Shown: positions 3,001 through 6,000 of the stretch, one piece after another
How the letters are laid out: each line of letters opens with the position of its first letter
Position numbering within the stretch: position 1 is the stretch's first letter
Origin: Stx2-converting phage Stx2a_F403
Sequence record: AP012529
DNA: 63,369 nucleotides
Direction: 5' to 3' (one strand)
Position numbers: made by a program

Positions 3001-6000
3001 TTTAATCATTTCTTTGTCGGTGAACGTTGTCATGTGTTAGTCCTTATCCACTTCAACGCCATCTTTCAGCGTGATGCCGTGCCAATCATCAGCCCAACTG
3101 GTTAACCCAGGCGCATCAATGCTAGGCATATAGACGCTTGCAGTGTGGTAGCCCTTATCGTTATCAATGCTGGCAACGTGCTCGCCGTTGTATGCGCTCA
3201 GCGTGTCTAGGACACTATAAAACTTTCCTCCGGCTGCCCTGAAATCCTTTACAGCCTTCACAAGACGATTCCACGCTTTTTCCTGTTCTGGCGTCAGGTC
3301 GATTAATTCCTGCAAAGTTGCCATTTCAGTTTTCCTTATATGGGTTAATTTTATTGTGCAGTGTGTTGAACGACGCCCATACCACGTCGTTATACAACTC
3401 AATAACTAGCTCAATTATTTTCCCGATTGCCCAGACAAAAATTAGCGGGGATATCGGTGTCATCAACACGATAAACAGAATGAGAAACAAAAATTCTGTC
3501 GCTCTACTTTTTCGCGGATATTCTTTTCTGAATAATGTAGGCACATCACTCTCCTTTGTTGCTCCTCAAAATTTTATGCCCTGGCGCAAAAGCACGCGTT
3601 TTGTCTTTGCTTATTCGCCAGCCATCCTTGCGCGCCTCTTTTGCACAGCCAGCCCATGACGTACCGATATACTCACCGAAGTCTGGCGACTTATATTTGC
3701 CATCTGTACACTGGAGGCAATCACAATAGAGATGCATGGTGTAACTTGCAGCAATAGCCATATCACTCTCCTTTAGTGCGCAAGTGGTTTTTCCAGCGGT
3801 TTTGCTCCGCGCTGGGCTTTTTGCAAAAACCACAATCCATCATCCCGTAATATTTCATCAACCCCATTCGTCGGTTGCTGAGTCTCACCCACTGCCAGAC
3901 GCCAGGAGCGTTTCTACGAACTAACAGAATCTTTGCTTTACGGTTTTTCATCGTTTTGCTCTCCTGCATCTCTTTGCTGCTCGTCGTGCCGCTGCAATAC
4001 CGGTATGGCGGCGCTTTGGTGTCGGGATGATGTTCTTTGCAATTAGCGCAGAAGCCCAAAAACGAGTCGGATACGGTAACAAGCCGATACATGCCACACG
4101 CATTACTCACCTCTTTTGATGCGAATGCCAGCGGCGCGCTCGGCTTCACTTTGTTCCCAAAACCACTTGTGAAGCGCCATAAGCTTTTCGTCAATCGGTG
4201 CATATTTGCGATTAAAGTAGGCCTGAGCATCTTTCTCAGATTCGTCCGGTAATTCGCCAGGGCCAAACAGTGTGTTATAAATCCATGCTAGTCCGCTCTT
4301 AGCGTCGCCAGTTGCCTGCCATTCGATAATGGCAGCCTGCATGACCAGAATGTTTTTCCCGATTAATAGGTCCAGTTCTTTGTACCGGTTGCGGATGTAT
4401 GCATTCTCGCTTTGTAATTTTGCGTTGCGCTTTTCTGAGGCTTCAAGTAACGCCTGCTTATCGCGTAGAGCTTCTTCCAGTTCAGCAACATGGCATTCAC
4501 TATCAATAAGGTTGTTCTCTGCTGCTTCAAGCTCAACACGCAGCTTCCCAACCGTAAGCGCAATCTCCTCGTTCTCCTGGTCGCGGCGTTTGATGTATTG
4601 CTGGTTTCTTTCCTGTTCATCCAGCAGTGCCAGCACGGTAGCCGGGTTAGCCTCTGCTATGAATTCAGCGTTTGCATAAGCCTGATCATCTGATTCAATC
4701 AGGCAGTTAACATGACATTCCGCAATCACGCCACCGGGTTCTCCTTTCCATTTTTGGCAAACAAAAACTCCTGTTAAATTGCCGTGCTGGTTAACAGATG
4801 TATGCCCTACGATGTAGCTTCCTTTAGTTGCTTTCTCTGCCTTTTCACGCAGTGCCTGATAATTAATTTCGCTCACTTCGAACCTCTCTGTTTACTGATA
4901 AGCTCCAGATCCTCCTGGCAACTTGCACAAGTCCGACAACCCTGAACGGCCAGGCGTCTTCGCTCATCTATGGGATCGCCACACTCACAACAATGAGTGG
5001 CAGATATAGCCTGGTGGTTCAGGCGGCGCATTTTTATTGCTGTGTTGCGCTGTAATTCTTCAATTTCTGATGCTGAATCAATGAGGTCTGCCATCTTTCA
5101 TTAATCCCTGAATTGTTGGTTAATACGCTTGAGGGTGAATGCGAATAATAAAAAAGGAGCCTGTAGCTCCCTGATGATTTTGCTTTTCATGTTCACCGTT
5201 CCTTAAAGACGCCGTTTAACATGCCGATCGCCAGACTTAAATGAGTCGGTGTGAATCCCATTAGCGTTACCGTTTCGCGGTGCTTCTTCAGTACGCTACG
5301 GCAAATGTCATCGACGTTTTTATCCGGAAACTGCTGTCTGGCTTTTTTGATTTCAGAATTAGCCTGACGGGCAATGCTGCGAAGGGCGTTTTCCTGCTGA
5401 GGTGTCATTGAACAAGTCCCATGTCGGCAAGCATAAGCACACAGAATATGAAGCCTGCTGCCAGAAAAATGCATTCTGTTGTTGTCATGCCGGGTCTCTC
5501 TCGTTTGCTTCTGCTTTCGCCGCCATCATTTCCAGCTTTTGTGAAAGGGATGTGGCTAACGTATGAAATTCTTCGTCTGTTTCTACTGGTATTGGCACAA
5601 ACCTGACTCCAATTTGAGCGAGGCTATGTGCCATCCCGATACTCGTTCTTAATTCAACAGGAGATGCTTTGTGCATACAGCCCCTCGTTTATTATTTATC
5701 TCTTCAGCCAGCCGCTGTGCTTTCAGTGGATTTCGGATAACAGAAAGGCCGGGAAATACCCAGCCTCGCTTTGTAACGGAGTAGACGAAAGTGATCGTGC
5801 CTACCCGGATATTATCGTGAGGATGCTTCATTACCATTGCTCCCCATATACAAAACCAATTTCAGCCAGTGCCTCGTCCATTTTTTCGATGAACTCCGGC
5901 ACCATCTCGTCAAAACTCGCCATGTACTTTTCATTCCGCTCAATCACGACATAATGCAGGCCTTCACGCTTCATGCGCGGGTCATAGTTGGCAAAGTACC

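Follow-up and report, generated by a model that had tools for sequence, protein, structure and literature searches.

Paralogous copies of the orf73/ea22 junction in Stx2-converting phage Stx2a_F403, with a right copy probably overwritten by homologous patch exchange

We describe two directly repeated segments in the Stx2-converting phage Stx2a_F403 (AP012529), one in the early left arm and the other near the right end of the prophage map; the whole stretch of 63,369 nucleotides that was analysed is referred to here as the window. Very likely these segments are paralogous copies of the lambdoid junction between orf73, which encodes a TraR/DksA-like zinc-finger protein, and ea22, and the right copy has been overwritten by homologous patch exchange in the lineage of phage 933W. 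The evidence that carries this reading is a site-by-site comparison in which the right copy holds a central tract of left-type alleles between edges made up of the alleles found at the right-end locus of related phages. The repeat and its polymorphism among phages, annotated as arrangements 'cde' and 'cfe', are already known from GenBank feature tables; what our analysis adds is the site-by-site mosaic, its polarity against an outgroup, and its effect on the right-end ea22 gene and on the presence of a DUF4752 gene.

Results

Self-comparison of the window with blastn gives a direct repeat of 588 bp, 4418-5005 against 61441-62028, in the same orientation, with 97.96% identity, 12 mismatches and no gaps. 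The original prediction, made from the sequence alone, had placed the copies at 4440-4990 and about 61462-62013 in the same orientation and at high nucleotide identity, with only a few substitutions; both of its intervals lie inside the limits found here and the identity is borne out. When the copies are compared in register the mismatches prove to be confined to the edges, with ten within 4420-4540 and the other two at 4987 and 4999, leaving an identical core of 446 bp (4541-4986 = 61564-62009). If the 12 mismatches fell randomly across the 588 bp, so long a clean run would have a probability of P ~5e-6. Right of 5005 the copies are still homologous, at 60-70%, as far as the orf73 start codon; left of 4418 the similarity between them disappears. 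The repeat and the ends of the window are laid out as follows, in window coordinates.

1-7: attL core GTTTCAA; the same heptamer stands at 63363-63369 (attR)
4418-5005: left (A) copy, with the 3' 133 nt of orf73-A and the 5' 459 nt of ea22-A, the genes overlapping by 4 nt
61441-62028: right (B) copy, 57,023 bp downstream on the prophage map
4541-4986: identical core in A coordinates, the maximal tract of the proposed exchange; minimal tract by diagnostic sites 4614-4972
61564-62009: identical core in B coordinates, an A-type tract in a B-type background; minimal tract 61637-61995
61003-61235: region of ea22-B with both short shared segments described below

The mosaic structure of the right copy was resolved in an alignment of both copies from the window, from Stx2 phage II and from F422, together with two O111 prophage copies, to which the outgroup POCJ13 was then added. 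Diagnostic sites are the positions at which the A-type sequence differs from the right copy of Stx2 phage II, and the window right copy is distributed over them as follows (A coordinates).

Left of 4541: 10 diagnostic sites, window right copy B-type at 10/10
4541-4986: 31 diagnostic sites, window right copy A-type at 31/31
Right of 4986: 43 diagnostic sites, window right copy B-type at 43/43

At the edges, the window right copy thus carries the right-locus alleles of Stx2 phage II and F422 at 53/53 sites, and the alleles switch abruptly from recipient to donor and back to recipient within continuous homology. Three kinds of difference set the right copies of Stx2 phage II and F422 apart inside the tract: 31 substitutions, one deleted base pair and, where orf73 meets ea22, an insertion of 271 bp that codes for a DUF4752 protein (Pfam) and is missing from the window right copy. 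Most relatives of 933W have a right copy of this diverged kind, which matches copy A at 95% and 83% identity with DUF4752 lying between orf73 and ea22, and in which ea22-B is frameshifted. The 1-bp deletion of these 'cfe' phages breaks ea22-B into open reading frames (ORFs) of 80 aa and 219 aa, as is also annotated in F422, so that their right-end ea22 is probably a pseudogene. The split genes of Stx2 phage II and F422 lie at 2788-3710 of our sequence L008 and 3115-4013 of L007.

The polarity of the change comes from POCJ13, a Shigella phage of the sister genus, in which the interval from exo to int is essentially devoid of genes and there is no left-arm copy, and whose right end reads Ant-orf73-DUF4752-ea22-...-DUF551. 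At the 31 tract sites POCJ13 is B-type at 22, A-type at five and neither at four, and it shares all 271 insertion columns. Because this outgroup has both the insertion and mostly B-type alleles, the diverged, insertion-bearing form is concluded to be the ancestral state of the right-end locus. The right-end cluster is old in the phage subfamily, since a sister genus has it without a left-arm copy. The mosaic, its polarity and its consequences for the ORFs are all shown by the present data. Between DUF4752 and ant POCJ13 also contains an orf73/TraR-like ORF of 73 aa (4337-4558 of sequence L009; NC_025434.1 about 60836-61057), which is unannotated and whose N-terminal part is nearly identical to that of the window orf73-B.

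The setting of the repeat is a complete element. Since GTTTCAA stands at both of its ends, the window is exactly one prophage, a complete Stx2 prophage of the 933W/Min27 type running from attL to attR (Sepvirinae, Traversvirus), and over its first 6 kb and its last 4.4 kb it matches phage 933W, Min27 and Stx2 converting phage I with 100% identity. Both copies are present in independently determined records, namely 933W, Stx2 phage I, Min27 and the closed EDL933 and 86-24 chromosomes, and they occur with their distinct flanks at 100% identity in the closed EDL933, 86-24, Xuzhou21 and other chromosomes. The right copy in the 1999 933W record (NC_000924.1; 3243-3830 of sequence L002) has 14 differences from the window left copy, against 12 for the window right copy, the extra ones being minor strain variation or old sequencing differences.

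All of the genes associated with the repeat are on the minus strand at both loci. The left locus runs from exo (5831-6508) through orf60a, orf63, orf61, orf73-A, ea22-A, several small genes, a DUF551 protein, an ASCH protein, xis and int to attL; the right locus comprises ant, orf73-B, ea22-B, a 156-aa ORF, hok/sok and a ygiW-like gene. The genes that bear on the argument are listed here.

4873-5094, minus strand: orf73-A, 73-aa TraR/DksA C4 zinc finger of the exo-xis block (PF01258, 35.8 bits)
61896-62117, minus strand: orf73-B, 73 aa, N-terminal third B-type, residues 30-73 identical to orf73-A
4103-4876, minus strand: ea22-A, 257 aa, Ead_Ea22 domain only
61000-61899, minus strand: ea22-B, 299 aa, intact, Ead_Ea22 (2-155) and DUF551 (231-296)
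2410-3033, minus strand: DUF551 protein (933W L0065), 207 aa, C-terminal domain paralogous to the ea22-B C-terminus
62165-62794, minus strand: ant, antirepressor with AntA and P22_AR_C, first gene of the right-end cluster and directly upstream of orf73-B
29-1691, minus strand: int (29-1363) and xis (1392-1691)

At both loci ea22 lies directly downstream of orf73 with a 4-nt overlap, and the repeat takes in 44 codons from the end of the 73-aa TraR/DksA-like gene and 153 from the start of the Ea22-like gene, in accord with the coding content first assigned to it (the C-terminal half of a DksA/TraR-like protein and the N-terminal part of an Ea22-like protein). Pfam finds PF01258 (zf-dskA_traR) in both Orf73 copies, at 35.8 and 36.1 bits (cut-off 24.9), and PF13935 (Ead_Ea22) in both Ea22 copies, at 122.5 and 123.6 bits. 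The two Orf73 proteins are identical over residues 30-73 and over most of the first 17 residues, and divergent between; Ea22-A and Ea22-B have one substitution within the first 150 residues and are unrelated from about residue 155 until the DUF551 domain. The RefSeq feature table of 933W (NC_000924.1) has no coding sequence at 4873-5094, the left orf73, and annotates the right copy as a 'DksA-like zinc-finger protein'.

A shorter segment shared by the two ends, also part of the original prediction, is real: 2419-2457 matches 61003-61041 over 39 bp at 97%, collinear with the long repeat, and a further collinear segment links 2600-2657 and 61178-61235 over 58 bp at 91%. Both fall within the gene for the 207-aa DUF551 protein on the left. 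The idea built on the shorter segment, that the right-end ORF at 61000-61899 is a mosaic of two early-left genes, needs to be corrected. The Ea22 protein of Phi24B is reported as a long fused form with Ead_Ea22 and DUF551, and the left ea22 of 933W is regarded as the product of a split: an insertion separated off its C-terminal domain, which lies in L0065 (PMC8614690). The ORF at 61000-61899 has the Phi24B architecture, and its DUF551 part shares only 50% protein identity with that of the left 207-aa protein. The 299-aa Ea22-B is accordingly a protein of common architecture and is not best read as an assembly of two left-arm genes.

The repeat has been annotated before. In AP004402 (Stx2 converting phage I, circularly permuted) repeat_region features mark 'arrangement cde; region II' at 29835-30414 and 'arrangement cde; region IV' at 36174-36753, with the attachment site at 31749-31755 between them. 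The window left copy (4418-5005) equals AP004402 36166-36753 at 100% identity and so overlaps region IV, and the right copy corresponds to region II; the annotated length is 580 bp, compared with 588 bp by blastn. This is the same sequence at the same two positions flanking the attachment site, with no structural difference. In AP005153 (Stx1 converting phage) and AP005154 (Stx2 phage II) the right copy bears the label 'arrangement cfe': a segment 'f' of 370 bp stands there in place of the segment 'd' of 99 bp. We take AP004402, AP005154 and AP005153 to be the records of Sato et al. 2003.

Across phage records, the 588-bp sequence has matches in 351, lambda among them (about 94% over parts), and only about 42 hold it in two places. 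The orf73-ea22 block occurs up to 17 times per complete E. coli genome, and the 'cde' (933W) right-end form is found in about 21 of the roughly 100 complete genomes with the right-end locus. The repeated sequence is the conserved junction of the orf73/ea22 module, common to the lambdoid pool. There is good reason for the original warning that the copies are likely to collapse in short-read assemblies, but what it concerns is the orf73-ea22 block as a whole, in all of its genomic copies.

The distance between the copies depends on the form of the genome. On the prophage map 56.4 kb separate them, as against only 5,751 bp (measured across attP) in the circular phage, where they bracket ant, attP, int, xis and the exo-xis region's distal genes. 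The description of copy B as lying in a right-end accessory region is therefore correct for the prophage map and does not carry over to the circular phage, in which the copies are 5.75 kb apart. The right-end cluster is oriented leftward and lies immediately past attP on the circular map, and integration shifts it to the attR end. The copies sit 4.4 kb and 1.3 kb inside the prophage ends, and this internal position rules them out as terminal repeats of a mobile element, such as an attachment-site duplication, long terminal repeats or the ends of an insertion sequence (IS); the true terminal repeat is the 7-bp GTTTCAA. In the repeat comparison of the window, no IS or inverted repeat was found in association with the copies.

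The perfect homology of 446 bp is in principle a substrate for RecA or for the phage Exo/Bet proteins, and this much of the proposal that the repeats could delete or rearrange most of the prophage stands. We built both predicted junctions (left flank, repeat and right flank, and the reciprocal) and used them to query 5,426 complete E. coli genomes. The predicted deletion product would be an element of about 6.3 kb with the order attL-int...ea22 hybrid-orf73-ant-attR. Neither the deletion junction nor its reciprocal gave a full-length match in the query gene order in this set, and the rearranged products were found in none of the genomes searched. Fourteen matches covered at least 80% of a junction, at 92-96% identity, with pieces that the search tool had joined out of order; two of them (H64 and H51) proved on inspection to be O111 prophages whose genes stand in another order, and the match profile of the remaining 12 is the same. 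All 14 appear to be O111 prophages that carry Ant within a normal exo-xis region, downstream of ea22/DUF551. Among publications on truncated wrbA prophages we found no account of a remnant made by this repeat. The instability of the repeat is potential, not observed.

Discussion

From these data we propose that a stretch of copy B, at least 359 bp (4614-4972) and at most 446 bp (4541-4986) long, was overwritten by A-type donor sequence in the lineage of 933W, Min27 and Stx2 phage I. The exchange would have been non-reciprocal, that is, a gene conversion, and the donor would have been either the left copy of the phage itself or a copy identical to it in a different lambdoid prophage. Such an event would have created the 446-bp identical core and removed DUF4752 from the right locus; it would have made orf73-B chimeric, with a B-type N-terminus joined to an A-type zinc-finger half, and restored a full-length ea22-B of 299 aa. 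The donor molecule, the enzymes (RecA or the phage Exo/Bet) and any recombination between the copies at the present day are inferred. Of the two kinds of past exchange first envisaged, illegitimate or homologous, the homologous kind is upheld by a delimited tract with outgroup polarity, and the illegitimate kind is not, the tract boundaries lying inside pre-existing homology. The tract is identical to copy A of the window and equally to copies in other prophages (sequences L004 and L008, at 100%). The safe statement is homologous patch exchange from an A-type donor, of which intragenomic gene conversion is the simplest version and not a proven one.

Several observations weigh against this reading, or at least against its simplest form. 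Copies identical to A over all 588 bp are present in unrelated prophages, for example in O111 strain 110512, and the exchange may therefore have been between genomes and not within one. At the left-arm locus, too, phages vary in the DUF4752 insertion, as Stx1_1649 shows, which indicates that alleles move through the wider lambdoid pool and that the history may be more complex. At 5/31 tract sites POCJ13 has the A-type allele, a single origin of 'cde' is presumed, and no present-day recombinant between the copies was found among the 5,426 complete E. coli genomes. Stx1_1649 (LC645432), with a single copy that carries the 'f' insertion at 99%, was considered as a recombinant of A and B and rejected, its flanks being those of the ordinary left-arm locus; it has the same int and only one orf73-ea22 copy.

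Other explanations of the repeat account for part of the evidence. A recent segmental duplication within the genome, in which a piece of about 590 bp was copied between the left arm and the right end and gained its 12 differences later, would agree with the high identity and shared orientation of the copies and with the restriction of two copies to one phage group. It is highly improbable in view of the confinement of the differences to the edges (P ~5e-6) and of edge alleles that are those of the diverged Stx2 II/F422 right copies at 53/53 sites; in addition, weaker homology extends past the repeat into the N-terminal part of orf73 and the DUF551 domain, and the right-end cluster of POCJ13 exists without a left copy. 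The polarity of the exchange could also be reversed, with the 'cde' right copy ancestral and 'cfe', that is DUF4752 and the diverged sequence, imported later into most relatives. A donor for this exists, as orf73-DUF4752-ea22 circulates elsewhere, in the left arm of Stx1_1649 and beside ea22 in other E. coli prophages, but it is made unlikely by the right-end locus of POCJ13, which has the insertion and is mostly B-type in its alleles, and by the position of 'cfe' as the majority form; moreover, the right copy of 933W would still have B-type edges and an A-type centre, so that homologous exchange would still be required. That a collapsed or mis-joined repeat in this assembly produced the pattern is hardly conceivable: nothing favours it beyond the fact that lambdoid prophages are in general hard to assemble from short reads, and both copies with their distinct flanks stand at 100% in the Sanger-era records of 933W and Stx2 phage I and in the closed EDL933, 86-24 and Xuzhou21 sequences. 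The suspicion of an artefact is answered by these independent records and closed chromosomes, and both copies are real.

It has to be asked, too, whether the copies are maintained as homology arms of a functional cassette, used to swap or shed int-xis-attP-ant and so to give int-less lytic derivatives or an excisable remnant of 6.3 kb. The geometry fits, in that the copies flank int-xis-attP-ant in the circular genome, and the phage encodes Exo/Bet/Gam and offers 446 bp of perfect homology. We nevertheless hold this to be very doubtful. Neither predicted junction was found in the 5,426 complete genomes, the copies in most relatives are only 83-95% identical and interrupted by an insertion, which argues against selection for homology, and most two-copy phages appear, by record counts, to share one int module (about 42 two-copy records against 38 records in which at least 80% of the left 6 kb, with int, is covered, the overlap between the two sets not having been checked record by record). 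Swapping of integration modules between the repeats is likewise unsupported, given that most two-copy phages seem to have a single int module in common.

Homologous patch exchange onto the right copy remains our preferred reading, and in these terms the feature is ordinary lambdoid mosaicism and leaves the current understanding of Stx phages unchanged. It resembles the mosaic module boundaries and the gene conversion between paralogous prophage segments of E. coli O157, where a short tract of perfect identity is likewise bounded by diverged sequence within homologous genes. Mosaicism in O157 prophages involves many co-resident partner copies, in up to 17 places per genome; the difference here is that both partners can lie in one phage genome.

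Within the phage, copy A is exactly the lambdoid exo-xis block (orf60a-orf63-orf61-orf73-ea22; PMC8614690, PMC7093339). Copy B resembles it in coding, like copy A, for the TraR-like zinc finger of orf73 and for the N-terminal/coiled-coil region of Ea22; it differs in lying beyond attP, next to attR, and in being preceded by Ant and not by orf61, within a cluster that reads Ant-orf73-ea22(+DUF551)-156aa-hok/sok-ygiW. As it lies outside the exo-xis position, copy B is a paralogue outside the block and not a member of it by position. The second orf73-ea22 copy goes unmentioned in the exo-xis papers PMC8614690 and PMC7093339.

A positional parallel may be the b region of lambda. This region consists of the genes that the leftward pL transcript reaches beyond att and that integration parts from pL. 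The right-end cluster is also leftward, lies just past attP and is moved to the opposite end of the prophage, and by this analogy it would be the distal continuation of the same leftward gene set, comparable to the b region; its gene content, however, is unrelated to lambda ea47/ea31/ea59.

The practical consequence is that phages of the 933W type have two orf73 and two ea22 genes that share about 450 bp of identical sequence, so that primers, probes, read mapping and knock-outs directed at the exo-xis region can hit both. We took the published 933W ea22 quantitative PCR (qPCR) primers and the Phi24B primers from Table 2 of PMC7093339. The 933W ea22 forward primer matches both copies exactly; the reverse primer has 0 mismatches to copy A and three to copy B, and is the only discriminating primer of the pair. 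The Phi24B reverse primer is an exact match to copy B of the window. The form of the right copy (DUF4752 present or absent, ea22-B broken or intact) is a clean marker that separates the 933W/Min27/Stx2-I subtype from Stx2a phages of the Sakai type, and the locus offers a clear worked example of homologous patches moving between paralogous lambdoid modules.

A more far-reaching conjecture, to which we give a low probability, joins two possibilities: a recurrent crossover between the copies on induction and, separately, a functional gain from the rebuilt ea22-B and the chimeric TraR-like protein. Crossing-over by Red or RecA during induction might regularly yield int-less genomes of 57 kb together with a 6.3-kb attP-int-xis circle, or a small excisable chromosomal remnant. 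Through the conversion that rebuilt ea22-B, phages of the 933W type may have acquired a second functional, pro-lysogenic Ea22, accompanied by a chimeric TraR-like protein, neither of which has a counterpart in 'cfe' phages. Were this so, the second Ea22 and the chimeric TraR-like protein would contribute to differences in lysogeny and induction among Stx2a phages and would complicate single-gene knock-outs in the exo-xis region.

Some minor features of the window were recorded alongside. Near the right end, a 31-bp unit is present in 2.8 tandem copies (96% matches) at 63157-63243, about 120 bp from the attR core; it is the annotated 'arrangement gg; region III' of AP004402, of which Stx2 phage II has a single 'g', and its units might be arm-type binding sites of the integrase. 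Immediately upstream of ant, the Rfam family sRNA-Xcc1 (RF02221) matches 62835-62923 on the minus strand with 69.1 bits, compared with a gathering score of 53. A scan of the right-end cluster for promoters and terminators gave a number of sites no higher than the shuffled expectation; one sigma-70-like site matching at 10/12 positions lies upstream of ant at 63042-63013 on the minus strand, and we draw no conclusion from it. Further into the cluster, a hok/mok-type toxin ORF (60159-60371) lies within 60159-60483, and a full-length match to the sok antitoxin RNA (RF01794, 113.5 bits) at 60309-60483 on the minus strand agrees with the hokW/sokW annotation of 933W. Elsewhere, 40673-41346 contains diverged 77-nt direct repeats rich in GGN codons in a late gene of the tail-fibre region, which look like collagen-like Gly-X-Y repeats, and a 31-bp palindrome is found at 41884-41914.

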